Source: Candidatus Nealsonbacteria bacterium (lineage in GTDB: Bacteria > Patescibacteriota > Minisyncoccia > Minisyncoccales > PWPS01). From it: a DNA stretch of 64,000 nucleotides. The DNA is taken from positions 2,825-66,824 of the forward strand of contig PUMP01000048.1 of NCBI GenBank assembly GCA_003551425.1, in the 5' to 3' direction. Shown here one piece after another: positions 15,523 through 52,068 of the stretch. The translations under genes and the position numbers were made by a program. The stretch's first letter is position 1, and the number at the start of each line of letters is the position of its first letter. The notes below the pieces were generated by a model that was given only the letters and a program-made list of their open reading frames with translations, was not told the origin of the DNA and made no database searches.

Positions 15523-16605
15523 ATGAATAACAAAAAAAATATTGCAATTTTATTCGGAGGTAAGTCTGCCGAGCATGAAGTTTCTTTGAAATCCGCAAAG
15601 AATATTTTTCAAGCGATTGACAAGGATCTCTACAATCCGATACTCATTGGAATTGATAAAGATGGAAGATGGTTTGTAAGCGAAGATCTTGAATCTGTTT
15701 TGCTAAATGAAAGATCCATGGAAGGCATCAGAAAAAACTATGTAGTCCTAGTTCCACAGTGCGAAGGAGAGGTTGTTTTTTTAGAGGGAGGAGAAAGAAA
15801 AGTAAAAGTTGATGTTGTTTTTCCCATACTTCACGGTCCTTTTGGTGAAGACGGAACAGTACAGGGACTTTTAAAGCTGGCGGACATTCCTTTTGTTGGT
15901 CCGAGTGTCTTGGGATCTGCGGTTGGCATGGATAAAGAGGCTATGAAAAAGATTTTAAGAGATAATTCTATTCCAGTAGCTGACTATATTTGTCTTCACA
16001 AAGAAGAAGAGGCTTTAAGTTATGAGGAGGTGGTGAGTAAACTTCAAAGCCCTTTTTTCGTAAAGCCGGCGAATATGGGTTCTTCTGTCGGGGTAAGCAA
16101 AGTTTCTACAAAAGAAGATTACCACAAAGCAATTTCTTTGGCGTTTGACTACGACTTAAAGATAATAATTGAAGAGTTTATAGAAGGAAGAGAAATTGAG
16201 TGTTCGGTTTTAGGGAACAACAATCCTCGAGCATCTGTTTTAGGAGAAGTTATTCCAAGTCACGATTTTTATTCTTATGAAGCAAAATACATTGACGAGA
16301 AGGGGGCTGATCTTGAAGTTCCGGCAAAAATTAGCGATGAAATAACCGAAAAAATTCAGAGCTTAGCAATAAAAACATTTAAATCTTTATACTGTGAAGG
16401 GCTGGGAAGAGTTGATTTCTTTTTAAAGGAGAATGGAGATGTTTTTGTCAATGAGATTAACACAATGCCGGGATTTACAAAAATAAGCATGTATCCAAGG
16501 CTTTGGGAGGAATCAGGCGTTTCTTACAAAGACTTGATAACAGAGCTTATCAATCTTTCCTTAGAAAGAATTAAAAAGGAAAAAGAATTAAAGCATGATC
16601 ATTGA
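15523..16605 (+). CDS. ddl: D-alanine--D-alanine ligase
   Basis: IAILFGGKSAEHEVSL, the ATP-grasp motifs, and the C-terminal EINTMPGFT..SMYP. It ends at TGA. Confidence 0.9.
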   Translation: MNNKKNIAILFGGKSAEHEVSLKSAKNIFQAIDKDLYNPILIGIDKDGRWFVSEDLESVLLNERSMEGIRKNYVVLVPQCEGEVVFLEGGERKVKVDVVFPILHGPFGEDGTVQGLLKLADIPFVGPSVLGSAVGMDKEAMKKILRDNSIPVADYICLHKEEEALSYEEVVSKLQSPFFVKPANMGSSVGVSKVSTKEDYHKAISLAFDYDLKIIIEEFIEGREIECSVLGNNNPRASVLGEVIPSHDFYSYEAKYIDEKGADLEVPAKISDEITEKIQSLAIKTFKSLYCEGLGRVDFFLKENGDVFVNEINTMPGFTKISMYPRLWEESGVSYKDLITELINLSLERIKKEKELKHDH

Positions 16606-22872: not shown

Positions 22873-23871
22873 ATGAGAAATCTTATCATAATCGCAATAG
22901 TTCTCTTTTCTCTTCTTTTTCTTTATTTGGGTTTTTATACAAGCCCGAAAGATTACGGAGAAAAAGAAATTTTTGTTGTTGAAAGCGGCGATGGTATCTT
23001 TGATATTTCGCGGAAATTGGAAGAGAAAGAGCTTGTCAGCTGCAGGTATCTTTTTGCCGCTTATGTGATTTTAAGAGGAGAAAGAAGAGACCTTAAGACA
23101 GGGATCTATGACATGCATTCGGGAATGAGTATTTCCCAAGTAACAGAAAAGCTTGTTGCCGGGAAAGTGAAAGAGGATTTTATTACCATCGTAGAAGGAT
23201 GGAATTTAAATGATATTGCTAAATATTTGGAAGAAAAAGGGTAAGGGAGTAAAGAAGAGTTTTACCGCCTTGCAGGAAGACCGCCAAGATACGAGGAACC
23301 ACAAAAGAGTGGAGAAATAAGAGAGGAATTTGCTTTTTTAAAAGAGAAGCCGGAAGATTTGCCTCTTGAGGGCTATCTTTTTCCCGACACCTATGCCGTA
23401 GCTGCCGGCGCGCAGATGGATGACATATTGAAATTATTTCTTGCAAATTTCAAAAAGAAAGCAGTAGAAGAGATAGGAGAAGAAGATATTTTTGAAACAA
23501 TTACAATCGCTTCTTTAATTGAAAAAGAAGTAATCAGTTATGAAGATAAAAGGTTGGTTTCCGGGATTATGAGAAATCGTCTTAAAATAGGAATGCCCTT
23601 ACAGATTGATGCCACTATCACTTATCTTACCGGAAGGAGAAGCGTTAATATTCCCATTTTGGAAACAAGAATAAAGTCTCCTTATAACACCTACGTAAAC
23701 ACCGGGCTTCCGATAGGACCTATCTCTAATCCGGGCATAGATAGTATAAGGGCGGCCATGGACCCGAAAGAAAACGATTATTTTTATTATCTGTCGAAGC
23801 CGACGGGAGAGACTGTTTTTAGCCGCACTCTGGAAGAACACAATTATGCAAAAAATAAATATTTAAGGTGA
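22873..23871 (+). pseudogene. mltG: endolytic murein transglycosylase MltG/YceG interrupted by one in-frame TAA (23242-23244)
   Basis: The N-terminal piece (TM + YceG N-domain) and the C-terminal piece (LEGYLFPDTY..QIDAT..GLP.GPI.NPG) are in the same frame. The 114 nt between them also translate as MltG-like sequence (GSKEEFYRLAGRPP...EDLPLEGYLFPDTY). Confidence 0.6.
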
Positions 23872-29674: not shown

Positions 29675-29751
29675 AAACAATAGATATCTTAGGAGTGATT
29701 ATAGCATTTATTGCCGCTATTTATTTTTTGCTTAATTCTCCTTTTTGAAAA

Positions 29752-29790
29752 GCAAAACCCCTTGTTGAGACACAAGGGGTTTTTGGTGTT
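29752..29790. terminator. bidirectional intrinsic terminator
   Basis: AAAACCCCTTGTtgagACACAAGGGGTTTT. Confidence 0.6.
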
Positions 29791-29802
29791 TTGGGTTTCT
29801 TT

Positions 29803-30042
29803 TTACTCTTCTTCCTCTTCCGTTTCTTCTTCGTCCTCTTCGTCCAGATCTTCTAAATCTTCATCATCGAGATCAAGATCATCGTCGAGATCAAGATCAT
29901 CATCGAGATCAAGATCATCGCCAAGATCTAAATCGTCGTCTTGTTCCTCTTCTCCTCCTGTTTCTTCCTCCTCTTCATCATCATCTTGCATCATTCCTAA
30001 AAGTTCTCTTTTACGAATTTCTTTTTGGTCTGATAAAAACAT
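29803..30042 (-). CDS. acidic repeat protein (DDLDLD hexapeptide repeats + poly-E tail)
   Basis: The ORF is built on the 18-bp tandem repeat. I chose the start at the internal Met (MFLSDQKEIRK...). The serine-rich plus-strand ORF at 29711..30124 is its shadow. Confidence 0.4.
   Translation of the reverse strand: MFLSDQKEIRKRELLGMMQDDDEEEEETGGEEEQDDDLDLGDDLDLDDDLDLDDDLDLDDEDLEDLDEEDEEETEEEEE
29869..29940. repeat. 18-bp tandem repeat x3-4 (GAGATCAAGATCATCRTC)
   Basis: Copies at 29869, 29887 and 29905, plus a degenerate 4th. They encode (DDLDLD)n on the minus strand. Confidence 0.8.
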
Positions 30043-30130
30043 ATTATTTTCTTTTCTTTTAAAGAAAAGTGTTATTTTATCTTTAAAGTACACCGACCTT
30101 TTTTCTAGACACATTATAATTTGAAAGAAA

Positions 30131-30598
30131 ATGTTGTCAATACGTGAATCAAATTTGCTTTCAAACTTTCTTTTATTTATAATAGAAACAATGATCAAAG
30201 TAACGGAAAAGAAAGGGTTTTTTGTCTCTTGGATTGTATGGCATTATGTTGTTGTCCTTAAAGAAATTATTCTATCTTGGAAAGATTTCCTTTTTTTTAA
30301 TTTGAATTATTTTTCTATTTTTCGTCTACTGACTACCTTTTTTTCTCCTTGGCGAAAATACAAAACATCTTATGGCAGGGGATTTGATCTTAAAAGATAC
30401 GCTGAAGCAATAATTTTCAACACTTTTTCTCGCCTCATAGGGATGATAATGAGGATATTCTTAATAATTACAGGCGTTCTGACAGAAATATTTATTTTTA
30501 TCACCGGAATTCTTTTTGTTGTTTTTTGGCTATTTATACCCGTTATAATAATCACGGGATTATTCTTATCAATAAGATGGATATTAACTTTCACTTAA
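30131..30598 (+). CDS. hypothetical polytopic membrane protein
   Basis: 155 aa, 4 predicted TM helices; overlaps the start of the Clp-like gene. Confidence 0.45.
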   Translation: MLSIRESNLLSNFLLFIIETMIKVTEKKGFFVSWIVWHYVVVLKEIILSWKDFLFFNLNYFSIFRLLTTFFSPWRKYKTSYGRGFDLKRYAEAIIFNTFSRLIGMIMRIFLIITGVLTEIFIFITGILFVVFWLFIPVIIITGLFLSIRWILTFT

Positions 30599-33090
30599 AA
30601 AAGGCGGCAATATATAAATCTTTATTACTGGGAAAGATTCCTATTTTTAGTAGAGCGGGTATTTTTAAGAAAATTTTTCTGCTTCTATTTTGTGTTTCTC
30701 TCTTATTATTTCTCTTAGAAGAGCACCTTGGAGCAGGTCCTTATTTTCTAGAATTTAGTTTTTTCTTCTTTCTTTTATTTCTTCTCTTTATGGAGCTTGA
30801 ATTTTTCTTCAAGTTTTCCGTAAAAAGACCCAATCTTTTAATAAGCACGCAAGACGCGCTAGACAACATAGAAGAAACAAATATTGCGGAGTTTTTAAGC
30901 TTTGAAAGTGCTCGTATCATAGAGGCCGTGGAAAGAAAAGGGGGAGCAGACTCTTATCTTCTTCTTTATTATCTGTTGAAAAAAGCAAAAGACATGGACT
31001 TTGTTTTCTGTCGCGCGATGCTTGAAAAAAAACAGGTTTTGCGTGACCTAAAATTTATTTTTGACGAAAGGAAGATAATCGCTGAGAAAGAGTACTCCAC
31101 TTGTCTGAAGAAGACAATAAAAGAGGCTTTGATTGTAGCGGCAAAAAGAAATAACGAAAGAATAACTCCCGGAGATTTATTTACCGCGCTTAGTAAACAT
31201 AATGGTTATTTAAGAGACTTTGTTTATCGGAACGGAATGACGGAAGAGGATATATTTGATCTTACTTCGTGGAGAAAGAGATTAAAAAGAAAAGAGAATC
31301 CTTTTCGCTACAAGAATCTTATTAAAAAAGGCAGCCTGGGGAAAGAGTGGAATTTTGGCTTTACTCCTTTTCTTGATGATTTTTCCATAAATTGGACGGA
31401 AAAAATGAAAATAGCCGGGTTTCCGGAAACGATCGGGCATAAAAAAGAGATAATATCTTTGGAAAGGATTTTAGCTCGTGATGAAATTAATAACGTAGTT
31501 TTAGTCGGAGAATCCGGAATGGGAAGAAGAAGCGTGATTCAGGGTTTTGCAAAAAAATCTTTTCTTGGAGAAAGTCTTCCGGGGACCAATCATTTACGCG
31601 TCTTAGAGCTTGATCTTTCTTCGGTCCTTGCAAGAGTAGAAGGATTGGAAAAAACAGAAAAGGCGCTTGATAAGATATTTAGCGAGGTAGCAAAAGCAGG
31701 TAATATTGTTTTGGTAATCAATGACTTCCATAATTTTATAACAGGAGAGCAAAGATTGGGAGCTATCAATATTTCCGGCATTCTGGAGCCTTATTTACAC
31801 ATGCCTTCGTTTCGATTGATCGGAGTAACTGATTTTTCCGGATTTCGAAAAGAAATAGAGAAAAACTCTTCCATCTTTTCTTTGATGGAAAAGGTAGAGA
31901 TGAGAAATTTATCGCACAAAGAAGTACTAATTCTATTGGAAAATTTAACTCTTAGACTGGAAAGAAGATCCGGGAAAATGATTTCGTTTGCGGCGATCAA
32001 AAATACAATAGAGTTTTCTGACCGCTATATGCAAGCCGAGCCTTTTCCGGAAAAAGCCTTTACTCTTTTAGAAGAAGCGGTAGCCCATATCGATCAGAAA
32101 AAAGAAAAAATTGTTTTACCGGAGCACATAGCGGAAATAATTTCCGAGAAAACGGAAATTCCTGTTGGAGAAATAGATAAAAAAGAAAAAGAAGTTCTTC
32201 TTAATTTGGAAAAACTTATTCATGAAAGGATTGTTAACCAAGAGAACGCAGTAAGGGCCGTTTCTTCCGCTCTCAGGAGGGCTAGAGCCGATGTAGGTGT
32301 GAGAAAGGGGACTATAGGAGGGTTTCTTTTCTTAGGCCCTACAGGAGTTGGAAAAACGGAAATGGCAAAAGCGATAGCTGATATTTATTTTGGATCGGAA
32401 AAGAAGATAAATCGTATCGATATGTCTGAGTTTCAAAATATTTCCGACGTACAACGTATTATCGGCTCAGCAGAAGAAGGGGGAGTATTAACTTCGGGAA
32501 TAATTGAAGATCCTTTTTCGCTTGTCCTTCTCGATGAAATAGAAAAAGCTCATCCCGATATATTGAATTTATTCTTACAAATTTTGGATGAAGGCCATAT
32601 CACGGACGGAACAGGTAGGAGGGTTGATTTCAGTAATTCCATGATTATCGCCACCAGTAACGCCGGCTATCAAATTATTCTTGAAGCGATCGAAAAAGGA
32701 ACAGAGTGGGGGAAAGTGAAGAAAAAGATTTTAAATAATCTTTTTCAAAGAACTGTTTTTCGTCCGGAGTTCGTTAATCGTTTTGACGAAGTTATTATTT
32801 TTAAACCCTTAACCAAGGAAGATCTTGTTGCCGTTGCGGGTATGCAGCTTGATAATATAGCCAAAAAATTTGCGAGTAAAGATATGCACTTTACGGTTAC
32901 CAAGGAATTAAAAGAGAAGATTGCGGAAATGGGATACGATCCGGTATTTGGCGCAAGAGAGATGCAGCGCGCTATACAGGACAGTATTAGTAACGAGCTT
33001 GCCTCCGCTGTTTTACGCGGTAATATTAAAAAAGGAGATAAGTTTACCGTTGATGAAAAGAGCTTGAAGATAAGGAAGATGAAAACGTAG
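30577..33090 (+). CDS. ClpB/ClpC-like AAA+ chaperone with N-terminal TM segments and degenerate D1 P-loop
   Basis: D2 is intact: Walker A GPTGVGKTE, Walker B LVLLDEIEKAH, sensor 2/Clp C-terminal domain. The D1 Walker A reads GESGMGRRS in place of GxPGVGKT. About 90 aa of N-terminal membrane region precede a Clp_N-like repeat. Confidence 0.7.
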   Translation: MDINFHLKKAAIYKSLLLGKIPIFSRAGIFKKIFLLLFCVSLLLFLLEEHLGAGPYFLEFSFFFFLLFLLFMELEFFFKFSVKRPNLLISTQDALDNIEETNIAEFLSFESARIIEAVERKGGADSYLLLYYLLKKAKDMDFVFCRAMLEKKQVLRDLKFIFDERKIIAEKEYSTCLKKTIKEALIVAAKRNNERITPGDLFTALSKHNGYLRDFVYRNGMTEEDIFDLTSWRKRLKRKENPFRYKNLIKKGSLGKEWNFGFTPFLDDFSINWTEKMKIAGFPETIGHKKEIISLERILARDEINNVVLVGESGMGRRSVIQGFAKKSFLGESLPGTNHLRVLELDLSSVLARVEGLEKTEKALDKIFSEVAKAGNIVLVINDFHNFITGEQRLGAINISGILEPYLHMPSFRLIGVTDFSGFRKEIEKNSSIFSLMEKVEMRNLSHKEVLILLENLTLRLERRSGKMISFAAIKNTIEFSDRYMQAEPFPEKAFTLLEEAVAHIDQKKEKIVLPEHIAEIISEKTEIPVGEIDKKEKEVLLNLEKLIHERIVNQENAVRAVSSALRRARADVGVRKGTIGGFLFLGPTGVGKTEMAKAIADIYFGSEKKINRIDMSEFQNISDVQRIIGSAEEGGVLTSGIIEDPFSLVLLDEIEKAHPDILNLFLQILDEGHITDGTGRRVDFSNSMIIATSNAGYQIILEAIEKGTEWGKVKKKILNNLFQRTVFRPEFVNRFDEVIIFKPLTKEDLVAVAGMQLDNIAKKFASKDMHFTVTKELKEKIAEMGYDPVFGAREMQRAIQDSISNELASAVLRGNIKKGDKFTVDEKSLKIRKMKT

Positions 33091-33185
33091 AGAAGAAAAA
33101 ATCAACGCTTCAGTCCCTCTTCCAAGGAAGGGGGATTTTTTGGTTTATAGGGGAAGTGGATAACAGGGGTTGACAGGTTTTGTTT

Positions 33186-33256
33186 TGTGGAATAAAATGG
33201 GAACACGTTATCATATTGTGGAAAAAAGTGGGGAAAACTAATATTCTTTGTGGAAA
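33186..33256 (+). promoter_or_regulatory. MraZ operator-like array of GTGG(G/A) direct repeats upstream of mraZ
   Basis: GTGGA...ATGGG...GTGGA...GTGGGG...GTGGA at ~10-12 bp spacing within 80 bp of the mraZ start. Confidence 0.45.
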
Positions 33257-33262
33257 ACAATT

Positions 33263-33694
33263 ATGTTTATCGGTGAATATACATATAAGATAGATGAAAA
33301 GAAGAGACTTGCTATCCCGATAAAATTTCGCGAGGAATTAAAGAAAAGAACGGTGATTACCAAAGGACTCGATAGTTGTCTTTTCATGTACCCGCTTAAG
33401 GAATGGAAGGAGTTAGCTCCCAAAATAAGCAGCATGCCTCTTGCTCAGTCTGACGCAAGAGGATTTGCTCGTTTTATGCTTGCCGGTGCCATGGAGGTAG
33501 AGTTTGATTCTTTGGGAAGAATTCTTGTTCCCGATTACTTGAAAGAATACGCATCTTTAAAAAAAGAAGTGGTGATAGTTGGTGTTTATAACCGAATAGA
33601 AGTATGGAACAAGGAGTTATGGGAAGAGTATCGAACAAAGACAGAAAAGGAGGTCGGGAGTATCGCAGAAAGACTAAAGGAGCTTGGAGTTTAA
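33263..33694 (+). CDS. mraZ: transcriptional regulator MraZ
   Basis: Duplicated MraZ/AbrB-type domains (KKRLAIP.KFR... and GRILVPDYL); first gene of the dcw cluster. Confidence 0.85.
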   Translation: MFIGEYTYKIDEKKRLAIPIKFREELKKRTVITKGLDSCLFMYPLKEWKELAPKISSMPLAQSDARGFARFMLAGAMEVEFDSLGRILVPDYLKEYASLKKEVVIVGVYNRIEVWNKELWEEYRTKTEKEVGSIAERLKELGV

Positions 33695-33698
33695 ATAG

Positions 33699-34562
33699 AT
33701 GAAAGAGCAGATTCATATACCTGTTTTGAAAGAAGAAGTATTGTCCTTTTTAAATCCGCAGAAAAACCAGAACTTTGTAGATTGCACGGCGGGGATGGGA
33801 GGCCATGCGTTGGCCTTGCTGGAGCGCAACGGTCCGGAAGGAAAGGTTCTTGCCTTGGAGTGGGACACCGATCTTTATAAATTACTGAAAAATAAGAAGA
33901 GACTTCTTGTTTTCAACGAATCCTATACCAGACTCGAAGAGATTGTAGAGCGAGAGAACTTCCACCCGATTTCAGGAATACTTTTTGATCTGGGGTTCTC
34001 TAGCTTTCATACGGAAAGGAGCGGAAGAGGGTTTTCTTTTATGAAAGATGAGCCGCTTGATATGCGTTACAACAAAAATACTCTTCTTACGGCCGAGAAG
34101 ATAGTTAATCAATATAAAGAGAAAGATCTTTTTTACATTTTCCGTAAGTGGGGAGAAGAAAAGTACGCACGTGAGATAGCGAGAAACATTGTTTCGAAAA
34201 GAAAAAAGGAGCCGATTAAAACCACAAAAGATTTGGCAAGAATCATAGAGAAGAGTGTTCCTTCTTCATATAAATCCCAACGAATAAATTGCGCGACAAA
34301 AACTTTTCAAAGCCTTCGTATCGCGGTAAACGGAGAGATAATGAATATGAAAGAGGGATTAACGCAAGCGCTGAGAGTGCTTCCCAAAAAAGGGAGAATC
34401 GCTGTTATTACTTTTCATGGAATTGAAGAAAAAACATTACTTGATTTTATCAAAGAAAACAATCTTTTTCTTTTGACAAAAAAACCAATTACCCCGCGCA
34501 TTGAAGAAATTAAAAATAATATTCGTTCAAGGTCGGCGAAACTAAGAGTAATCATCAAATAA
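33699..34562 (+). CDS. rsmH: 16S rRNA (cytosine1402-N4)-methyltransferase
   Basis: HIPVL..E....L......VDCT.G.GGH, DLGFSS, and the C-terminal RSRSAKLRV. Confidence 0.9.
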   Translation: MKEQIHIPVLKEEVLSFLNPQKNQNFVDCTAGMGGHALALLERNGPEGKVLALEWDTDLYKLLKNKKRLLVFNESYTRLEEIVERENFHPISGILFDLGFSSFHTERSGRGFSFMKDEPLDMRYNKNTLLTAEKIVNQYKEKDLFYIFRKWGEEKYAREIARNIVSKRKKEPIKTTKDLARIIEKSVPSSYKSQRINCATKTFQSLRIAVNGEIMNMKEGLTQALRVLPKKGRIAVITFHGIEEKTLLDFIKENNLFLLTKKPITPRIEEIKNNIRSRSAKLRVIIK

Positions 34563-34568
34563 AGAAAA

Positions 34569-34853
34569 ATGAAGTTTAAATTTATTTATATTTTATCACT
34601 TTCTCTAGTAATAGCTCTTGCTTCTTTTTGTGTTTTTCAGATTATTGAACTTACAGAAGAAGTTTATCTTGTACAAGTAAAGCAAAAAGAACTAAATAAT
34701 ATTTTTCAAGAGAATGAGATTCTTACAAATAATTCAGCCAACAAGATATCGTTAAGAGAGGTAGAGAGTTTAGCGCGAGATATGGGCTTTGTGGATGCAA
34801 GGGATGTAAGTTATATCGAGGTACTTGGAACAGAAGTTGTGGTTTATGAATAA
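34569..34853 (+). CDS. FtsL-like cell-division protein
   Basis: 94 aa; single TM then coiled coil; sits between rsmH and ftsI. Confidence 0.5.
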   Translation: MKFKFIYILSLSLVIALASFCVFQIIELTEEVYLVQVKQKELNNIFQENEILTNNSANKISLREVESLARDMGFVDARDVSYIEVLGTEVVVYE

Positions 34854-36501
34854 AGGGCGTTTTTATTTCGTTGTTGTCTTAATGACACTTATGTCAGCTG
34901 TTCTTTGCTGGCGTCTTTTTAATATTCAGGTTTTAAAAAGTGGGGAGTGGAGCGCGCAAGCTCAGGGACAACAGAGATATTTTACTCAGGACGAAGGAGA
35001 AAGAGGATCAATTTATTTACAAAATGTAAATGGCAACCAAATTCCGGTTGCTATAAACAGAAAGATTGTACATGCTTATATCTCTCCCCGTGAGATTGAA
35101 GAAAAAGAAGATCTTGCGCTAAAGCTTTCCAATGCTTTGGAAGTTGAAAAAGAAGAAATATTGGAGAAGATGGATCGCGACTCCTCTTATGAAATAATAA
35201 AAAGGGAACTAAGCAAAGAAGAGATATTGGAAATAAATGAAATTTCCAAAGCCTATCTGGAAGAAGATATTAAAAGATATTATCCGGAAAACGATTTTAG
35301 CTCCCATGTTCTTGGGTTTATAGGAGGAGAAAGAAAAGGCCAGTATGGAGTAGAGCAATATTATGAAGAGATTTTACGAGGAAGAGTAGGAATAAGAGAG
35401 GGGAGTAGAGGCTCCTGGGGATCTCTTATTACAAGAGATTCCATAAAAAGGGGGGAAGATATCTCTTTGACCGTAGACTATAATATTCAACATTTTGTAG
35501 AGAAGGCTCTTCTTGACGCTCATGAGGATTTTAATATTACGGGTGGAAGCATTATCGTGGGAGATCCAAACGACGGAAAGATTATTGCCATGGCAAGTTT
35601 TCCTTCTTTTGATCCTAATAATTATCGTGAAAACAGCAGCTACGAAGTATTAAAAAATCCAGTAGTACAAAAAACTTTTGAGCCGGGATCCGTTTTTAAG
35701 CCGATTACCATGGTTGCCGCTCTGGAAGAAGGGGCGATAGACCCCGACGAAACCTATAACGATACGGGAGAAAAAAGAGTCCACGGAAGGGTTATACGCA
35801 ATTATGGACAACGATCTTACGGTGAAGTTACGATGAAGGAAATCATGGAGAGATCAATCAATACGGGAATTGTTTATGTAAAAGACAGGATTGGGAACGA
35901 ACTTTTTGAGGAGTATATTGAAAAATTTGGATTCTTTGATTTTACGGGAATTGATTTACACGGCGAAGTTCTTTCTGAAAACAGAAGTTTTAAAGAGGGA
36001 TATGATATAAATTACGCGAATGCTTCTTTTGGGCAAGGAATAGAAGTTACTCCTATTCAGTTTTTTCGGGCTTTTTCTGTTATTGCCAATGGCGGAAGGC
36101 TGGTAAACCCCTATATTGTACAAGGAATGGAAACACCTGAAGGAGAAAGGATTATTTCTTCTTCTGCAGCCACTCAAATGACGTCCATATTGGTTGGAAC
36201 CATAGAGGATGGATTTGGAGCTTCGGCAAAGGTTCCGGGCTATCATGTTGCCGGAAAAACGGGAACTTCACAAATTTCTTGGTCTGATCTTGGTATAAGC
36301 AAAAGAGGATATTCTCCGGAGACCATTCAAGCGTTTGCCGGATATGTTCCCGCGTATGATCCCCAATTTTTAATTATGGTTAAGCTTGATAGGCCGCAAG
36401 CGCGTACTGCAGAAGTTTCTGCCGCACCTATTTTTAGAAAAGTTGCGGAATACGTTCTTGATTATAATCAAGTACCCCCTGATTATGAAATAGAAAAATG
36501 A
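34825..36501 (+). CDS. ftsI: penicillin-binding protein 2/FtsI (transpeptidase)
   Basis: N-terminal TM and PBP dimer domain. Transpeptidase motifs SVFKP (SxxK), SINTG (SxN) and KTGTS (KTG). It may start at the internal Met (34846). Confidence 0.85.
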   Translation: MEQKLWFMNKGRFYFVVVLMTLMSAVLCWRLFNIQVLKSGEWSAQAQGQQRYFTQDEGERGSIYLQNVNGNQIPVAINRKIVHAYISPREIEEKEDLALKLSNALEVEKEEILEKMDRDSSYEIIKRELSKEEILEINEISKAYLEEDIKRYYPENDFSSHVLGFIGGERKGQYGVEQYYEEILRGRVGIREGSRGSWGSLITRDSIKRGEDISLTVDYNIQHFVEKALLDAHEDFNITGGSIIVGDPNDGKIIAMASFPSFDPNNYRENSSYEVLKNPVVQKTFEPGSVFKPITMVAALEEGAIDPDETYNDTGEKRVHGRVIRNYGQRSYGEVTMKEIMERSINTGIVYVKDRIGNELFEEYIEKFGFFDFTGIDLHGEVLSENRSFKEGYDINYANASFGQGIEVTPIQFFRAFSVIANGGRLVNPYIVQGMETPEGERIISSSAATQMTSILVGTIEDGFGASAKVPGYHVAGKTGTSQISWSDLGISKRGYSPETIQAFAGYVPAYDPQFLIMVKLDRPQARTAEVSAAPIFRKVAEYVLDYNQVPPDYEIEK

Positions 36502-37100
36502 GAATTAAAAATAAAAGAGTTATAATTGTTTCGGGTGAAAGAAGGAGGGAAGCGGCCCAAGTAATTAATTTTGTTCTAAAACAAAAATATTCTGTTCTTT
36601 GGATTAAAGGTTTTCCGGGATTTTTTCAATTTCTTTCTGCGTTACGGAAAGAGGTAATTATCATTGAAGACGATCTAAGTCTTGATCCCCAAAAGCTTAA
36701 GGGTATTATTTCCAAAAACTCACTTCTCTTGGTTACGGAAATAAAAAGCAAAACGAGGATAAAAAAAATTCTTGCGGCATTTCCTTCCAAAGGGTTTTTG
36801 GTAATGGACTTTTCAATAGCGAGAAGATTAAAAGGAAAAAGCTTTAAAAGACTCTTTACTTTTGGAATCGAAAGAAAGAAAGCGGATTTTTATGTTAGTA
36901 ATATCAGCAAAGGAGAAGAAGAAACCAATTTTAAGGTTAACTATAAAGGAAATATTATTCCTTTTTGGACAAAAGGACAATTAAGTGAAAAAGAAGTTTA
37001 CGGCATTCTTTCCGCTCTCTGTGTGGGAGAAATCTTTCGTATTAATTTATCCGATATATCTCAAAGAATAAGAGATAGTTTTTACTTTACAGAGAGGTAA
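36498..37100 (+). CDS. degenerate Mur ligase (MurF-like) remnant lacking P-loop and C-terminal domain
   Basis: Collinear with the MurF central domain: KRVIIVSGERRREAAQVINFVL matches kviGiTGSnGKTTTkemla.iL, but the P-loop is destroyed. LFTFGIERKKADFYVSNI...G.LSEKEVYGILSALCVGEIFRI matches vfTFG...ADv.a.ni...G.hnv.NalaA.a.al. The ORF ends before the C-terminal domain. Confidence 0.5.
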   Translation: MRIKNKRVIIVSGERRREAAQVINFVLKQKYSVLWIKGFPGFFQFLSALRKEVIIIEDDLSLDPQKLKGIISKNSLLLVTEIKSKTRIKKILAAFPSKGFLVMDFSIARRLKGKSFKRLFTFGIERKKADFYVSNISKGEEETNFKVNYKGNIIPFWTKGQLSEKEVYGILSALCVGEIFRINLSDISQRIRDSFYFTER

Positions 37101-37125: not shown

Positions 37126-37201
37126 GGCCCCATCGTCTAGTGGCTTAGGACGCCGGGTTCTCAGTCCGGTAACACGGGTTCAAATCCCGTTGGGGTCACC
37201 A
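37126..37201 (+). tRNA. tRNA-Glu (anticodon CUC)
   Basis: Resembles bacterial tRNA-Glu (GGCCCCATCGTCTAGTGGCTTAGGAC...GGTTCAAATCC...CCA). Anticodon loop is TTCTCAG. Confidence 0.8.
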
Positions 37202-46096: not shown

Positions 46097-46169
46097 TGCG
46101 GGATGGTGTAATTGGTAACACGCCACGCTTTGGACGTGGAGTTTCCAGGTTCGAGTCCTGGTCCCGCAG
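46097..46169 (+). tRNA. tRNA-Gln (anticodon UUG)
   Basis: Acceptor TGCGGGA/TCCCGCA, D-stem GTGT/ACAC, anticodon stem CCACG/CGTGG with loop CTTTGGA, T-arm CCAGG-TTCGAGT-CCTGG. Confidence 0.75.
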
Positions 46170-46188
46170 CAAAGGGTAAGAGCGAAAA

Positions 46189-46236: not shown

Positions 46237-47160
46237 ATGAAAAAAATAAAAGACATATTAGACAGTTTTCTAATACAAGCGCAAACTGATAATCTTACAA
46301 CTGGCTCATATCCCAAAGAGTATAATGATTTAAAAATGAAAGTTTCTTTTGGAATGGGGATGCCCGCAAGAGTTCCCTGGGTTGCTTTTATTGTTCCGGA
46401 AATGCAGGTCAGTAAAGGTTTTTATCCTGTTTATTTGTATTATAAGAGCATGAATACTCTTATTCTTGCTTATGGCGTAAGTGAAACATCAGAGTTTGAT
46501 AAAACTTGGCCAGCAGAAATAATGAACTCAACTTCCACCATAGAAGGATTTTTTAATCAAGAAGTTCCCAGATATGGAGATTCTTTTGTTTTTAGAGTTT
46601 ATAAAATTAAAATAGAAAATAGAGAAGTTATTTATTCTTCTGAAGGAAATGAAGATATTTCTAGTCACGATCTCGAATCTGATTTAAATACTATTTTGGA
46701 TTACTACAAGAAAGTTGTTTTAGTTGATGCTAAGGAGAAGAGTTCTGCAATGAGTCAAGGACTATTCTACATGGAGAAACAATTAGAAGATTTTATTATT
46801 CAAAATTGGGAGAATACTGAATTAGGAAAAAAATTTGATTTAATAATTGAAGATGGAGAACTAGTAAGCCAACAGTATAGAACTGATATTGGACAGATAG
46901 ATATATTAGCAAAAGAAAGAGGAAAAGAAGGCTTTGTTGTTATTGAACTAAAGAAAGATCAGACAAGTGATGATACTATAGGACAATTGGCTCGTTATAT
47001 GGGTTGGGTCAAAAGACACAAGAGAGACGAGGGAGTGAAAGGAGTCGTTATTGCTGGACATTATGACAAAAAACTAGACTATGCTCAAGAGATGATGCCA
47101 AATATAGAAGTTTTTCTATATGAGGTAGATTTTAAACTTAAAAAATTTGGGGAAAATTAG
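46237..47160 (+). CDS. MrcB_N (DUF3578)-like N-terminal domain fused to DUF91/NucS-like PD-(D/E)XK nuclease; putative modification-dependent (type IV-like) restriction enzyme
   Basis: The N-terminus (ILDSFL..A.T.NL.TGSYPKEY..L.MKVSFGMG..ARVPWVAFI...SKGFYPVYLYY) matches the McrB N-terminal domain family pattern. The C-terminus (LEDFIIQNWE...IDILAKERGKEGFVVIELKKD...DTIGQLARYMGWV) matches the DUF91/NucS nuclease (D...ELK). Confidence 0.55.
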   Translation: MKKIKDILDSFLIQAQTDNLTTGSYPKEYNDLKMKVSFGMGMPARVPWVAFIVPEMQVSKGFYPVYLYYKSMNTLILAYGVSETSEFDKTWPAEIMNSTSTIEGFFNQEVPRYGDSFVFRVYKIKIENREVIYSSEGNEDISSHDLESDLNTILDYYKKVVLVDAKEKSSAMSQGLFYMEKQLEDFIIQNWENTELGKKFDLIIEDGELVSQQYRTDIGQIDILAKERGKEGFVVIELKKDQTSDDTIGQLARYMGWVKRHKRDEGVKGVVIAGHYDKKLDYAQEMMPNIEVFLYEVDFKLKKFGEN

Positions 47161-47269
47161 CTCTCTTCTAGTCGAAGAACTTGGCTTTTTAAAAATTATT
47201 TATAGCAAATTGCAGCCCTAAGTTTGTCCACTGTGGTCAATATGTTTAAATTCAGAAAACCATAAAGAT

Positions 47270-47806
47270 ATGCCCTATTTTGCAATTTTTATATTGATTA
47301 TTTTTTCTATACCGGCTGTAATCTTGATTTTTACTTTTTTTATATTGATTTCAAATTTTGTTAGAGAAAAAGAGAAAAAAGAAATTTTGCTCCCTTACAG
47401 AAAAAGAAACTCTCTACTATCGTTTCAAGAAAAAAAATTTTATAAAGTAATAGATAAAATAGCAGAAGACAATAATTATTTATTGTTTACAAAGGTGAGA
47501 TTGGAAGATTTATTTTGGATTCCAAAAAACATCTCTTCAAAAGAAAGATTTGGTTTGCGTAATAGAATTAAGTCTCGTCATGTTGATTTTTTGATTTGTA
47601 ATAAGGATAAAATTACTCCAATTTTAGGAATAGAGCTTGACGATTGGAGCCATGCAAGTCGTAAAGCAAAAGAAAAAGACAAATTTATTAATAAAGTTTT
47701 TACTAGCGCAAAACTTCCACTTTTAAGAATTGAAACCCAAAAATTCTACAACCCAGAATTAATTCTTGAAGAAATCAAAAACAAGACGGTAAAAACCAAA
47801 AAATAA
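47270..47806 (+). CDS. DUF2726-domain protein (restriction-endonuclease-like fold) with N-terminal TM
   Basis: EKKFYKVI....NNYLLFTKVRL....HVDFLIC.KD...ILGIELDDWSH....KDKFINKVF..AKLPLLRI matches the DUF2726 pattern. Confidence 0.5.
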   Translation: MPYFAIFILIIFSIPAVILIFTFFILISNFVREKEKKEILLPYRKRNSLLSFQEKKFYKVIDKIAEDNNYLLFTKVRLEDLFWIPKNISSKERFGLRNRIKSRHVDFLICNKDKITPILGIELDDWSHASRKAKEKDKFINKVFTSAKLPLLRIETQKFYNPELILEEIKNKTVKTKK

Positions 47807-47829
47807 AAACAATTAAAAAATAAAAAATT

Positions 47830-48090
47830 ATGGCATTAGTAAATTGTTCTGACTGCGGAAAAGAAATATCAGATAATGCAATAAAATGTGGTAATTGTGG
47901 AAATCAAAATACACCGGGGGAAAAGGGGGAAGAAAAAGAGCTTAAATCGAATATGACGAAACTTGCAGTTCTTTTTTCCATCCCTTTTTCATTAATTCTT
48001 ATTTTTTTGGCCTTACTTACTGGAGATTTTTTAATAATAGTGTTTGCAATTATTTTCGTAATAGGATTAATTATTATTGCAGCAAAATAA
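47830..48090 (+). CDS. zinc-ribbon (CxxC...CxxC) small membrane protein
   Basis: MALVNCSDCGKEISDNAIKCGNCGN followed by a C-terminal TM helix. Confidence 0.5.
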   Translation: MALVNCSDCGKEISDNAIKCGNCGNQNTPGEKGEEKELKSNMTKLAVLFSIPFSLILIFLALLTGDFLIIVFAIIFVIGLIIIAAK

Positions 48091-48220
48091 ACGAAGAAAA
48101 AATTAAAGAAATAAAAAAATAAACGATAATACTCTTTTGGTTGAGGAAATTTTTAAAGTGTTATGGTTCTAGCATCGTTCACTGTAGCCAGCATTCTTGT
48201 GCTAGTGACCGAGACGGGTA

Positions 48221-48255
48221 AGCCCTGAGATTTATTTTCAGGGTTTTTGTTTTAT
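48221..48255 (+). terminator. intrinsic terminator
   Basis: CCCTGAGAtttattTTCAGGG followed by TTTTTGTTTTAT. Confidence 0.6.
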
Positions 48256-48271
48256 GGTAAAATAAAATAAT

Positions 48272-48853
48272 ATGGCAAAAATAATACTGGCGACAACTTC
48301 TCCTTATCGAAAAAAGATATTTGAGACCTTAGGGATTCCTTTTGAAGTAGAGGGGAGCAATGTTGATGAATCGCAACTGGAAAGAAATAATCCGGAAGAA
48401 TTGGTTAAAGAGCTGGCAAAGCTGAAAGCGGAAGCAGTCGCTAGAAACCATAATGATGCCATTGTAATTGGATTTGATTCGGTTGGATACTTTAACGGAA
48501 AATTTCTTGAAAAACCAAAATCAAAAGAAGAGGCGTTTGAGAGACTGCAGTCTCTTTCGGGAGGAAACCATCAGCACTATACTGGAATTTATATAATAAA
48601 CACAAAGTCCGATAAAACGATTTCCGGCGTTGATAAGGCTGATATTTTCATGCGGGATTATTCGGACAAGGAGATAGAAGAATATCTTAAGCAGGGTTCC
48701 GAATTTAACCGCTTTGCGCTCGGGTACGACACAGAAAAGCAGATCAGCGCCTCATTTATTCAAAAGATAGAAGGAAATCATCTTAATTTAAAAGGCATTC
48801 CTTTGTCGGTCTTGGTCGAGATGTTAAGAGAAATCGGATATAAACAACAATAA
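48272..48853 (+). CDS. maf: Maf-family nucleoside triphosphate pyrophosphatase
   Basis: ILATTSPYRK..F..LGIPFEV, VIGFDSV, and the C-terminal GYD pattern of Maf/YhdE. Confidence 0.85.
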   Translation: MAKIILATTSPYRKKIFETLGIPFEVEGSNVDESQLERNNPEELVKELAKLKAEAVARNHNDAIVIGFDSVGYFNGKFLEKPKSKEEAFERLQSLSGGNHQHYTGIYIINTKSDKTISGVDKADIFMRDYSDKEIEEYLKQGSEFNRFALGYDTEKQISASFIQKIEGNHLNLKGIPLSVLVEMLREIGYKQQ

Positions 48854-48887
48854 TATAATTTAGTTGTGAATACTTGTATTGCAAAAA

Positions 48888-48914
48888 AACAGCCGAGGAG
48901 AGCCTCGGTTTTTG
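48888..48914 (+). terminator. intrinsic terminator
   Basis: CCGAGGagagCCTCGG followed by TTTTTG. Confidence 0.55.
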
Positions 48915-48995
48915 CTTAATAAGTAGATTTGGGGTAGAATATAGAAGATAATTAAACATATTTATGGGAGAAATAAAAAATAATAATTTATAAAT

Positions 48996-49454
48996 ATGGA
49001 TGATGAAATTACAATTTTAGAACTTAAAAAAATATTGCAGAAATTTAAAGAAGATAGAAACTGGGGGCAATTTCATGATCCTAAAAATTTAGCTGAAGCC
49101 ATATCAATCGAAGCAGGGGAATTACAAGAAAAATTTCTTTGGAGAACAGTTCCCGGAATTTTGGAAAAGTTGAAAAATGATAAAGAGTATAAAAAAGAGG
49201 TAGAAGATGAGTTCGCAGATATAGTAATATTTTGTTTAAATTTTGCAAATGCTACTGACATAGATATCTCTAAGGTGATAAAAGAAAAAATTAAAAAAAA
49301 CAATAAAAAATATCCCCCGGAAAAGGCAATGGGTGTTTCTGAAAAGTATAATAAACTATTATTGTTTATCAATCTACAAAAAAGGGTTTCAGTGAAGATG
49401 TTATTACTAATAGAATTGAAGAAGCAATTCTTGATATTTTTCAAAAAAAAATAG
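48996..49454 (+). CDS. MazG-like nucleotide pyrophosphohydrolase (all-alpha NTP-PPase)
   Basis: R.WGQFHDPKNLA.AISIEAGEL.E.F.W......E......EVEDEFADIVIF matches the small MazG/YpjD-type core. The metal-binding E..E and E..D residues are present. Confidence 0.6.
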   Translation: MDDEITILELKKILQKFKEDRNWGQFHDPKNLAEAISIEAGELQEKFLWRTVPGILEKLKNDKEYKKEVEDEFADIVIFCLNFANATDIDISKVIKEKIKKNNKKYPPEKAMGVSEKYNKLLLFINLQKRVSVKMLLLIELKKQFLIFFKKK

Positions 49455-49498
49455 GGAGGAGCACCTCTCCTGGTGAAGTTAATGCCTGGAAGAATTCC

Positions 49499-51211
49499 AT
49501 GATGTATATGGAAAACGTACTAAAAGATAATGAAATTCCAGAAGATTGTGGGGTTATGATTGAGTATCAGATACCTCAAACCGCGAAAAGAATAGATTTT
49601 ATATTAACTGGTCAAAATGATAAAAAAATTGATCATGCGGTTATTGTAGAGCTTAAACAATGGGAGTTTGCGGAAATAACAGAGATGGATGGTATTGTTT
49701 CCACTTTTGTAGGCAAAGCTATTCGGCCAGAACCACACCCCTCTTATCAGGCCTGGTCTTATGCTTCACTTTTAAATAATTTTAATGAGGCTGTTTATAG
49801 TGGCAATATTCAACTAAAACCCTGTGCTTATCTTCACAATTATAAAGAGCGAGATGCAATAGTAGATAATTTTTATAGCGAATATATTAAAAAAGCACCC
49901 CTTTTTTTAAGAAATGATTCATTAAAATTACGTTCATTTATTAAGAGATTTGTTAAGTATGGAGATAAGGGAAAAGTTATGTACGAAATTGAGAGTGGGA
50001 GAATAAGACCATCTAAGGGTCTTGCAGATAGTTTAGAAGGTATGTTAAGGGGAAACCAAGAGTTTGTAATGGTTGATGATCAGAAAATAGTTTATGAGAG
50101 GGCGTTACATTTAGCAAAGAAATCGAGTGATAGAAACAAGAAAGTCTTTATTATTGAGGGAGGTCCAGGCACGGGAAAATCTGTGGTAGCGATAAATTTA
50201 TTAGTTGAACTAACAAAACAAAAATTAGTAACACAGTATGTTTCAAAAAATGCAGCGCCCCGAACTGTTTATTGTAATAAGCTTACAGGCAAACACAAAA
50301 AAACGGAAATAGCAAATTTGTTTACGGGATCTGGTAGTTTTGTAAATGCAGAGGAAAATGTTTTTGATACTTTAATAGTAGATGAAGCTCATAGGCTGAA
50401 TGAAAGATCAGGACTATATGCTAATCTCGGAGAAAACCAGATAAAAGAACTGATTAACGCAGCAAAATGTACTGTCTTTTTTATTGACGAGGATCAAAAA
50501 GTGACTTTTAAGGACATCGGAGAAAAAGAAGAGATAATAAAGTGGGCAAAAATGCAAGGCGCCGACATTTACGAAGATAGTTTAGTGTCACAATTTAGGT
50601 GTAATGGATCGGATGGATATTTGGCTTGGCTTGATAATGCCTTACAAATTAGAGAGACTGCAAATAAGACACTTCAAGGTATAAATTTTGATTTTCGTAT
50701 TGTAGACTCCCCAAACAAACTCAGAGATTTGATTTTTGAAAAAAATAAAATAAACAATAAAGCAAGGTTGGTGGCAGGTTATTGCTGGGACTGGATAAGT
50801 AAAAAGGACAAAAACCTGCATGACATAGAATTTCCAGAATATAATTTTAGAATGAAATGGAACTTAGCTACAGAGGGAAGTCTTTGGATTGTATCGCCAA
50901 AATCAATCAATGAAGTTGGTTGTATTCATACTTGTCAAGGATTAGAGCTTGATTATATTGGAGTTATTGTAGGAAAAGATATGATTGTAAGAGATGGAGA
51001 GGTTTTAGTTGATCCAAGAGAGCGGGCTAAGACAGATGCTTCATTAAAAGGTTATAAAAAATTATTAGAAGAAGATGAAAAAGCTACGAAAGAAAAAGTA
51101 AGAAAAATAATCAAAAATACTTATCGAACCTTAATGACACGAGGAATGAAGGGGTGTTATGTCTATTTTGTGGATAAAGAAACAGAAGATTATTTTCGAA
51201 GTAGTGTTTAA
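49499..51211 (+). CDS. DUF2075-type protein: N-terminal PD-(D/E)XK nuclease-like domain + SF1 helicase/ATPase (Schlafen-like)
   Basis: The N-terminus (RIDFILTGQ...AVIVELKQW) is D...ELK. Walker A GGPGTGKS; DEAH-like IVDEAHRL; C-terminal GCIHTCQGLELDYIGVIVG resembles UvrD_C_2/motif VI. It starts 45 bp downstream of the MazG-like gene. Confidence 0.65.
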   Translation: MMYMENVLKDNEIPEDCGVMIEYQIPQTAKRIDFILTGQNDKKIDHAVIVELKQWEFAEITEMDGIVSTFVGKAIRPEPHPSYQAWSYASLLNNFNEAVYSGNIQLKPCAYLHNYKERDAIVDNFYSEYIKKAPLFLRNDSLKLRSFIKRFVKYGDKGKVMYEIESGRIRPSKGLADSLEGMLRGNQEFVMVDDQKIVYERALHLAKKSSDRNKKVFIIEGGPGTGKSVVAINLLVELTKQKLVTQYVSKNAAPRTVYCNKLTGKHKKTEIANLFTGSGSFVNAEENVFDTLIVDEAHRLNERSGLYANLGENQIKELINAAKCTVFFIDEDQKVTFKDIGEKEEIIKWAKMQGADIYEDSLVSQFRCNGSDGYLAWLDNALQIRETANKTLQGINFDFRIVDSPNKLRDLIFEKNKINNKARLVAGYCWDWISKKDKNLHDIEFPEYNFRMKWNLATEGSLWIVSPKSINEVGCIHTCQGLELDYIGVIVGKDMIVRDGEVLVDPRERAKTDASLKGYKKLLEEDEKATKEKVRKIIKNTYRTLMTRGMKGCYVYFVDKETEDYFRSSV

Positions 51212-51273
51212 ATAATTTAATATCAATGATAATGAAGGATATATTATCATATAAGGATATTAATAAATAAAAT

Positions 51274-51402
51274 ATGAAAAAAATAGTTCTATTAGTTATA
51301 TTTTTATTGATAGCGGGAGGTGGTTTTTTCTTCTATAGATCACATAATTACTGCAACAGGATGTATTGCAAAGCCGTAAAAAGCCCTAGAATTAAACTAT
51401 AA
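51274..51402 (+). CDS. possible small membrane peptide (42 aa, [21 protein letters not shown]...)
   Basis: Short ORF with one TM helix; weak ribosome-binding context. Confidence 0.2.
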
Positions 51403-51404
51403 AT

Positions 51405-52034
51405 ATGAACAATAAATTTTACTCTCTACCGGATTTACCCTACGGTTATAAAGATTTAGAGCCCTATATCTCGGAAGAGCAACTAAGTATTCATCATCAA
51501 AAACATCACCAAGCATACGTAAATGGTGCTAACACTGTTTTTGAAAGATTGGAAAAATCTAGGAAAGAGGGGAGTGATCTGGACATGAAAGCGACTCTCA
51601 AAGAGCTGTCCTTTCATGTAAGCGGTCATGTTTTACACTCTCTTTTTTGGCAAAATATGGCTTCTTCAAAAAAAGAAGGTGGAGGAGAGCCCTCCGGTCG
51701 GCTTGGAGAAATAATAAACGATGAATTTGGGAGCTTTGACAGATTCAAGCAAGAATTCACTAAAGCCGCCATCTCTATTGAAGGTTCCGGATGGGTAGCT
51801 TTAACACTGGACAAGGAAAGTGGAAGACCGATGATAATGCAAATTGAAAAGCATAATTTAAATTTGTATCCCGGATTTTCCCTTTTATTGGTATTTGATT
51901 TTTGGGAACACGCTTATTACCTGGATTACAAAAACGAGAAAAATAAGTTTATTGAAGCTTTTTGGCAGATTGTTAATTGGGAGGCCGCTGATAAGAGATT
52001 AAACAGATTCGACGACAAACTTGCACACTCTTAA
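51405..52034 (+). CDS. sodA: Fe/Mn superoxide dismutase
   Basis: LP.L.Y....LEP.IS......HH.KHH..YV N-terminus, and the D....WEHAYY C-terminal metal-binding motif. Confidence 0.85.
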
Positions 52035-52068
52035 TCTTGTAAAAGCCGGAAGAAGAACAAAAACAAAA

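Follow-up and report, generated by a model that had tools for sequence, protein, structure and literature searches.

The open reading frame (ORF) considered here lies at positions 36498-37100 of the plus strand in a 64-kb stretch of DNA (64,000 nucleotides; positions 2,825 to 66,824 of contig PUMP01000048.1, assembly GCA_003551425.1) from a Candidatus Nealsonbacteria bacterium; "the window" below means this whole stretch. The ORF encodes a protein of 200 amino acids (aa) and follows ftsI in the division and cell wall (dcw) cluster, a slot that is filled by murF in related lineages. A first-pass annotation had described it as a dead Mur-ligase remnant that terminates a truncated dcw cluster. 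We report that the ORF belongs to a family of bacterial pseudoenzymes derived from a Mur ligase, which apparently has not been described before.

Gene order at the locus

The locus consists of the following features, given with the expect values (E) of their profile or phmmer matches.

33112-33137: terminator-like hairpin, directly before the promoter-like site
33170..33198, plus strand: promoter-like site, TTGACA-17-TAAAAT, 11/12, a consensus match only
33248..33694, plus strand: mraZ (Pfam PF02381, 1e-37; E. coli MraZ by phmmer, 5e-24)
33699..34562, plus strand: rsmH (mraW) (Pfam PF01795, 1e-87; phmmer, 3e-48)
34569..34853, plus strand: ftsL-like small bitopic protein, 94 aa, assigned from position and size only
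34825..36501, plus strand: ftsI, class B penicillin-binding protein (Pfam Transpeptidase, 5e-69; PBP_dimer, 5e-15)
36498..37100, plus strand: murF-slot gene predicted to be dead, 200 aa, a stand-alone Mur-ligase central domain
36531..36554, plus strand: degenerate P-loop SGERRREA, residues 12-19 of the 200-aa protein
36921..36968, plus strand: family signature ETNFKVNYKGNIIPFW, residues 142-157, which holds N144, K146, N148, P155 and W157
37126..37201, plus strand: tRNA-Glu(CTC), downstream of the 200-aa ORF

The 200-aa ORF is real, and the surroundings given for it by the first-pass annotation, i.e., mraZ-rsmH-ftsL-ftsI upstream and a tRNA-Glu and transporters downstream, were recovered: Pfam supports the upstream order, with ftsL placed by position and size, and the tRNA-Glu(CTC) is followed by an amino-acid permease and then a Na/Ca exchanger (Pfam). 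The 94-aa gene has no significant Pfam match, and relatives carry a gene of equal size at the same position. The probable start of the mraZ operon, as judged from the consensus match, is the promoter-like site at 33170..33198. The motifs of FtsI are intact (SVFK289, SIN344 and KTG478), and the ATG of the 200-aa ORF overlaps the ftsI stop codon (ATGA). When E. coli dcw proteins were searched by phmmer against the six-frame translation of the window, they matched only mraZ, rsmH, ftsI and ddl; no match was found for murC, murD, murE, murF, mraY, ftsW, murG or ftsQAZ, in agreement with the earlier statement that murE, mraY, murD, ftsW, murG, murC and ftsQAZ are missing from the window. A Pfam sweep of the remaining window ORFs of at least 150 aa added a YceG/MltG-like gene and no more mur or fts genes.

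Relationship to Mur ligases

Taken alone, the 200-aa sequence matches PF08245 (Mur_ligase_M) with 16.2 bits (gathering cutoff, 24; E, 0.01), the murE and murF models of NCBIfam at ~0.01 and MurE-like entries of the PDB at ~0.6. Because all these single-sequence matches are sub-threshold, Mur homology was taken from the fold and the family. The AlphaFold (AF2) model of the ORF has a predicted local distance difference test score (pLDDT) of 84 with 3 sequences and of 94.8 with a 78-sequence alignment, and a predicted template modelling score (pTM) of 0.91. In a Foldseek search of the PDB, all 50 matches listed are MurC/E/F, PAP11, MurT or FPGS. Their E values go down to 6.5e-10 in this list and to 3e-10 at the lowest, query-normalised template modelling scores (TMq) reach 0.77, and the top matches are exclusively central domains of the Mur ligase superfamily. 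The model shows the parallel sheet, flanking helices and small three-stranded antiparallel sheet of that domain.

Among 78 full-length family members, 44 match PF08245 at E<0.01 (best, 1.9e-11), and Mur ligases are the sole matches when the profile of the 78-member family is searched against the PDB. The Mur-ligase relationship of the 200-aa ORF is therefore real, as established by fold and family together, although a profile search with the ORF alone stays below threshold. The collinearity with MurF that the first-pass annotation had extended over the N-terminal and central domains holds for the central domain and fails for the N-terminal one: the ORF aligns to E. coli MurF residues ~100-315 only, which is the central domain. 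No model in Pfam or NCBIfam covers this short form.

Distribution of the family

A word-indexed homolog search returned 3 proteins only, and an exhaustive profile search was required. The former yielded two orthologs (55% identity, 202 aa; 41% identity, 194 aa) from soda-lake Ca. Nealsonbacteria assemblies, both with synteny identical to that of the window; the latter yielded 462 representatives at E<=1e-3 and 254 at <=1e-10, where each representative stands for a 50%-identity cluster and nearly all are of 150-230 aa. A scan of species-representative genomes gave 45 loci (numbered below with L) belonging to Ca. Nealsonbacteria, Ca. Paceibacter and other Parcubacteria, which together with the two earlier ones make 47 related loci. 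The dead murF family is thus common to a large clade of ultra-small Parcubacteria.

The gene order mraZ-rsmH-(ftsL)-ftsI-family gene is found in 43/43 loci with an upstream flank, so that the ORF is conserved in relatives, a point that the first-pass annotation had set down for checking; the other 4 of the 47 are contigs that lack this flank. The gap between ftsI and the family gene has a median of 6 nt, and the two genes overlap in 14/43. The family gene is followed by tRNA-Glu(CTC) in 33/34 of the related loci scanned (L001, L004 and the L008-L056 and L059 range), and the tRNA gene is absent after canonical murF in both loci scanned (L060 and L061); its adjacency is a synteny marker of the degenerate clade. 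Such a distribution, together with the compact fold (pLDDT, 94.8) and the newly gained invariant residues described below, does not bear out the description of the gene as a remnant.

In their sources, the family members are labelled "hypothetical", "MurF" or "cyanophycin synthetase"; long-form fragments bear the label MurF at JGI, and some bear "cyanophycin synthetase" at NCBI. In two loci, L057 and L058 (ENA ERZ25039540 and ERZ25039557), ftsI, secA, murB and the family gene are each split into several ORFs, probably by indel errors of long-read assembly. Integrase (rve) and reverse-transcriptase genes were also observed close to the dcw block in L057.

Loss of the C-terminal domain

Family members fall into two sizes, a long form of ~345-370 aa with the central and Mur_ligase_C domains and a short form of ~160-240 aa with the central domain only. 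The C-domain profile matches long forms only. It finds no Mur_ligase_C in the ORF or in any frame of the window, and the ORF stops at the domain boundary, just as a missing C-terminal domain would have it. About half of the members, the window ORF included, lack this domain, and the short forms are scattered among the long forms on a rough neighbour-joining tree without support values, which suggests that the C-domain was lost repeatedly. The DNA between short forms and the tRNA gene holds unrelated small ORFs, with a faint trace of the C-domain in L018 only.

Several other readings were rejected. A split enzyme with a separate C-domain gene disagrees with the C-domain profile, which is blank in the window and near the short forms. 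Apparent "C-domain-only" proteins are contig-end fragments or artefacts of frameshifts or N-runs, as in L057 and L058 (broken ftsI and secA), L059 (a single frameshift) and L060 (an N-run). In the window clade, the short form is no assembly artefact of a long form either, as three orthologs share the residue at which they stop and the tRNA gene lies 26 to ~115 nt further on. Finally, a proposed N-terminal amphipathic membrane anchor aligns to the helix that precedes the P-loop strand in canonical MurF, and the window ORF lacks the segment.

A small basic ORF of 70-110 aa with two CxxC pairs (zinc-ribbon-like) was observed between the family gene and tRNA-Glu in short-form loci, about where the lost C-domain would be encoded:

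L017, 10745-11032: zinc-ribbon-like ORF
L018, 10851-11114: zinc-ribbon-like ORF
L019, 10796-11014: zinc-ribbon-like ORF
L044, 4395-4715: zinc-ribbon-like ORF
L050, 3469-3702: zinc-ribbon-like ORF

Loss of the catalytic features

Mur synthetases share invariant residues that are essential in enzymology: Glu, His and Asn-x-x-Asn in the central domain and Arg and Asp in the C-domain. Alignments show that the P-loop region of the window ORF is one residue shorter than that of MurF and devoid of Gly-Lys-Thr/Ser, which bears out the reported replacement of the P-loop, with SGERRREA in place of G-x-x-G-K-T/S; in the model, this region forms a strand (7-12), a 3-residue loop and a helix (16-27). The Walker-A motif GxxGK[ST] occurs at the P-loop position in 0/152 members listed. 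Compared with E. coli and canonical Parcubacterial MurF, the family also lacks the catalytic His, the equivalent of Lys154 and the His-Asn...Asn motif, as well as a segment of ~45 aa (FNSEIGVPLTVLGL...) that is present in canonical MurF.

Of the catalytic positions, the window ORF keeps the Glu, has a gap for the His and has Glu and Gly for the two Asn, while the Arg and Asp of the C-domain fall in the missing domain. In long forms, the His is replaced by Pro in 16/27, the Asn by Gln or Ser/Ala and the Arg mostly by Lys, and the C-domain motifs are altered from DDTYNSSP to DDSESAT and from GDMLELG to GDVxGIG. Among 53 alignment columns that do not vary in MurF, from E. coli to Kaiserbacteria, 35 are in the central domain; long forms keep 43% of the central-domain and 60% of the C-domain columns, short forms keep 25% of the central-domain columns and the window ORF keeps 7/35. 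The positions of the former active site differ among members, as would be expected once catalysis is gone. The loss of Walker A, of the catalytic residues and of the C-domain agrees with the earlier reading of a dead Mur ligase: the protein cannot be an ATP-dependent ligase, and, as far as can be read from sequence, it probably no longer ligates anything.

Selection and newly conserved residues

Close short-form pairs with synonymous divergence (dS) of 0.23-0.5 have ratios of non-synonymous to synonymous substitution (dN/dS) of 0.16-0.35, in keeping with the suggestion that a pseudoenzyme is retained under purifying selection. Between the window gene and its nearest ortholog, L001, dN/dS is 0.20-0.32, compared with 0.08-0.19 for neighbouring genes and 0.11 for ftsI. 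Twelve columns are at least 85% identical across 127 members, and seven of them hold residues never seen there in active MurF (D135, N144, N148, P155, W157, N183 and S188); K146 is present in 127/127 members. In the model, most of the family-specific residues lie on the small antiparallel sheet (strands 131-159), which also carries the signature ETNFKVNYKGNIIPFW on strands 142-149 and 152-159. The isoelectric point (pI) is 10.1 for the ORF, has a median of 9.3 for the family and is ~6.7 for active MurF. Constraint has shifted rather than disappeared.

The picture is not that of a pseudogene, since the ORF is intact in three orthologs (41-55% identity) that share a common end just before the tRNA gene. 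It is that of a pseudoenzyme, with catalytic residues lost, the fold preserved and purifying selection in force, where the inactivity is deduced from the lost residues.

Origin from an N-domain-less MurF

Two loci from neighbouring Parcubacteria, L061 on a 997-kb contig, have ftsI followed by a MurF of 430 aa:

L061, 3703-4995: canonical murF, Ca. Nomurabacteria, P0333
L060, 3388-4699: canonical murF, Ca. Kaiserbacteria

The motifs of these proteins are intact (TGSVGKTSTKD, FNSEIGVPLTVLGL, VLETG, PVHVE, GTHNVY, PGRM, DDTYNSSP and GDMLELG), and canonical Parcubacterial MurF is 63-80% identical across its 119 best matches (the query itself excluded). It has ~30 residues ahead of the P-loop and no N-terminal (UDP-binding) Pfam domain. 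As motif-intact Parcubacterial MurF is without the N-domain too, the absence of this domain predates degeneration.

Both blocks read mraZ-rsmH-ftsL-ftsI-murF, and the cluster stops after murF there too. Because the Kaiserbacteria and Nomurabacteria clusters also end at murF, the five-gene block is ancestral in Parcubacteria, including lineages with motif-intact murF, and a "truncated dcw cluster" is not a trait of the genome under study. Relocation of the other mur genes, which had also been suggested, is plausible, but it would predate the window lineage.

For the long forms, the best NCBIfam match is murF (TIGR01143; 1e-37), well under the cutoff. Canonical Parcubacterial MurF scores 231 bits against this model, long forms ~127, the short form of L018 31 and the window ORF 14.8, which is at noise level and fails the MurF-level cutoff; the curated cutoff is 288.6 bits, and canonical Parcubacterial MurF (~230) is also under it. 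Since canonical MurF fills the same slot elsewhere, the window gene is a degenerate positional ortholog of murF, with the murF slot after ftsI and, for the long forms, murF as the closest profile. Fold, family profile and genomic slot together bear out the proposed MurF descent and show that the family descends from an N-domain-less MurF of the Kaiserbacteria/Nomurabacteria type.

Peptidoglycan synthesis and the source of MurF activity

Two further genes of the window bear on peptidoglycan:

15523..16605, plus strand: ddl, D-Ala-D-Ala ligase (Pfam Dala_Dala_lig_C, 3e-77; Dala_Dala_lig_N, 2e-36; phmmer, 8e-50)
23359..23871, plus strand: YceG/MltG-like murein transglycosylase (Pfam PF02618, 3e-54; profile positions 105-275)

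The YceG/MltG-like ORF spans positions 105-275 of a 275-position profile only, and its true start may lie upstream or its usual N-terminal part may be missing.

The first-pass annotation had read the locus as reductive evolution of peptidoglycan precursor synthesis. This is contradicted by Ddl, the MltG-like gene and a motif-intact FtsI, all in the window, and relatives carry murB nearby. All soda-lake genomes in the Candidate Phyla Radiation (CPR) are reported to be able to make peptidoglycan (PMC6146748), and murE, murG, murA and murJ are found elsewhere in SCGC AAA255-P19, the genome of the short-form locus L019 (Nelson & Stegen, PMC4508563). Peptidoglycan synthesis is not being lost. The product of ddl is the substrate of MurF, and, since Ddl and FtsI require D-Ala-D-Ala addition, MurF activity is still needed and would therefore come from a gene elsewhere. 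We infer that these genomes encode another, active MurF.

Published gene tables bear on the same matter. Among the 14 Parcubacteria genomes for which a murF is listed, the gene next to ftsI is the sole "murF" in 13; no ftsI is entered for the 14th, and AAA255-P19 has a blank in the murF column (PMC4508563 Table S1). The ftsI-adjacent murF genes of this 2015 table may be of the canonical or of the dead type.

It is also conceivable, if unlikely, that the Nealsonbacteria-type clade has no competent MurF and that the dead protein is its only murF homolog. Because the cells make D-Ala-D-Ala and use a D,D-transpeptidase, the stem peptide would then have to be completed by an unrecognised enzyme or a salvage route, and published calls of a "complete peptidoglycan pathway" for the clade would be partly annotation artefacts.

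Proposed role of the family and alternatives

Pseudoenzymes commonly scaffold or regulate active relatives. We propose, with somewhat better than even confidence, that the family is a neofunctionalised, non-catalytic binding protein and that the active MurF is encoded elsewhere. The dead MurF would be made together with FtsI from one operon and, given the overlap of its start with the ftsI stop, would probably be co-translated. It would most likely bind through the newly conserved face of the small beta-sheet and its basic surface, and its partner would belong to the cytoplasmic machinery for cell-wall precursors or for division; another Mur enzyme, Ddl, MraY/MurG and the anionic inner face of the membrane are the candidates. 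A separate gene elsewhere in the genome would supply D-Ala-D-Ala addition.

Several points weigh against this proposal. No second MurF was found in the 64-kb window or within 10 kb on either side of related loci (826 kb in total), and the binding partner can be put forward only as a candidate class. Operon coupling need not mean contact with FtsI or FtsL, as each has ~10 cytoplasmic residues. The gene also evolves faster than its neighbours (55% identity, vs 70-95% for neighbours), and its dN/dS exceeds that of ftsI two- to threefold, so that the constraint on it is moderate. Finally, the C-domain of long forms has 68% mean column identity, vs 27-44% for the M-domain (the central domain), which, as judged from these alignments, fits poorly with an M-domain functional core; the C-domain appears to have been lost repeatedly nonetheless.

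One alternative, which we regard as rather doubtful, is a ligand-sensing regulator: the dead MurF would bind a small molecule, such as a muramyl-peptide, D-Ala-D-Ala or a phosphate-bearing ligand held by the Gly-x-Gly-Arg loop, and report precursor supply to the division operon. It would account for the highly conserved MurF-like C-domain of the long forms (invariant GD, H, GE and others), for the presence, in most members, of Arg or Lys where the P-loop Lys used to be and for N218 and D220 (E. coli numbering), kept in 27/27 long forms. However, even the long forms differ from one another at the loop Arg/Lys, at Glu158 and at the other residues of the cleft, the C-domain is wholly absent in half of the family, window ORF included, the N-x-D motif is also gone from the window clade, and the best-conserved residues are on the small beta-sheet, outside the cleft.

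Improbable, in our judgement, is a functionless relic, the frame of which is kept by translational coupling to ftsI or by expression signals of tRNA-Glu. Its faster evolution than that of the neighbours, the vanished catalytic residues, the repeated C-domain loss and the constant wedging of the gene between ftsI and tRNA-Glu are what such a relic might show, but dN/dS of 0.16-0.35 means that the protein sequence is under selection, ORFs that are intact and constant in length persist in hundreds of 50%-identity clusters, seven family-specific near-invariant residues have been gained and the model has a very confident fold. Useless DNA, moreover, is normally deleted in small streamlined genomes.

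To our knowledge, GKT and the Glu/His/Asn/Asn/Arg/Asp invariants are retained throughout the Mur ligase superfamily wherever activity is known. It is very improbable that the long form, or the short form assisted by a partner, is an enzyme of altered chemistry and the clade's only MurF, working without a classical P-loop. The catalytic positions are not just changed but variable between members, and the short forms are devoid of the domain that binds the incoming amino acid. In its favour are the retention of Ddl, the lack of a second MurF in the 826 kb around the loci and the ftsI-adjacent gene as the only "murF" in 13/14 genomes (PMC4508563 Table S1), although that table may refer to canonical versions.

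A nucleic-acid role, in which the basic protein binds RNA or DNA and is possibly tied to tRNA-Glu(CTC), is barely credible: the pI (10.1; family median, 9.3), the restriction of tRNA-Glu adjacency to the degenerate clade and PAP11, an RNA polymerase complex subunit, as top structural match of the better model speak for it, but tRNA-gene adjacency is common synteny and does not count as evidence of function, the ORF gave no motif or domain for nucleic-acid binding (Pfam, NCBIfam) and the PAP11 match goes back to the shared Mur fold alone.

Other features of the window

An apparent defence or mobile island lies at 46237-53319, just after tRNA-Gln (46097-46170). It encodes a NucS_C/MrcB_N-like nuclease, a DUF2726 protein, a Maf-like protein, a MazG-like protein, a Schlafen-group-3-type helicase (E, 7e-109) and an OLD-family AAA+TOPRIM nuclease, and the guanine-plus-cytosine (GC) fraction falls to ~0.32-0.34 between 46 and 52 kb. 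At 29711-30198, a low-complexity stretch reads as a Ser/Arg-rich ORF on the plus strand and an Asp/Glu-rich ORF on the minus strand, and is closely followed by a 155-aa membrane-like ORF and a ClpB-like gene. The latter (30526-33090) encodes an AAA+ protein listed with 854 aa (837 aa in the identical contig L006 and the relative L001); unusually for ClpB, its N-terminus is extended by a hydrophobic, membrane-like stretch of ~100 aa. At 7145-9163, a Na+/H+ exchanger domain (residues 12-375) is fused to a C-terminal S-adenosylmethionine (SAM)-methyltransferase-like domain (~459-558).

Comparison with known systems and significance

The closest known protein is the canonical MurF of Kaiserbacteria and Nomurabacteria (~430 aa), with which the family shares the slot after ftsI in mraZ-rsmH-ftsL-ftsI-X, a short N-terminus that ends in K-K-P before the first beta-strand, the central-domain fold and, for long forms, collinearity over both domains. 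Unlike canonical MurF, the family has no Walker A, a loop that is one residue shorter and a 45-aa deletion, has lost the His, Lys and Asn-x-x-Asn, has an altered or absent C-domain and is basic with new invariant residues, whereas canonical MurF is near-neutral.

Like the family, MurT, CapB/PgsB and the M-domain of cyanophycin synthetase combine central and C-terminal domains without a UDP-binding N-domain, and MurT is among the structural matches of the ORF model. In contrast to the family, these proteins are active ATP-dependent ligases with a preserved GKT P-loop; MurT, moreover, is the partner of GatD and has both a Cys4 insertion and DUF1727. The ORF has no P-loop, no Cys4 insertion and no match to DUF1727, and no locus has an adjacent glutaminase gene. 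Plant PAP11, with its MurE-like fold, belongs to the plastid RNA polymerase as a structural subunit (PMC11561172). It resembles the family in that the Mur fold has been put to an apparently structural use other than peptidoglycan synthesis, ranks with the best structural matches and is a precedent for such a co-option. It differs in that it is eukaryotic, derived from MurE and built of three domains plus extra folds, with RNA polymerase as a known partner, whereas the family is bacterial, derived from MurF, of one or two domains and still in the dcw operon.

With scaffold and regulator pseudoenzymes, the family shares the loss of catalysis, the retention of fold and purifying selection and the new conserved surfaces. 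Unlike pseudoenzymes with active paralogs, the dead copy occupies the orthologous slot, and no active paralog has been seen so far. Mur ligases are textbook essential enzymes and antibiotic targets. In our literature searches, we found no account of a large bacterial clade whose murF ortholog has turned into a conserved non-enzyme.

The motif-intact MurF of neighbouring Parcubacteria, which does without a UDP-binding N-terminal domain, is unusual in itself. The family is also an annotation trap, as automated pathway calls may count a P-loop-less protein as MurF; because members are labelled MurF and the core "murF" is the ftsI-adjacent gene, claims of pathway completeness for these symbionts may rest on a dead protein. 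This raises the sharp question of where in these genomes the D-Ala-D-Ala-adding activity is located. The passage from active MurF to a dead two-domain and then a dead one-domain protein offers a natural series in which the conversion of an essential enzyme into a pseudoenzyme can be studied.

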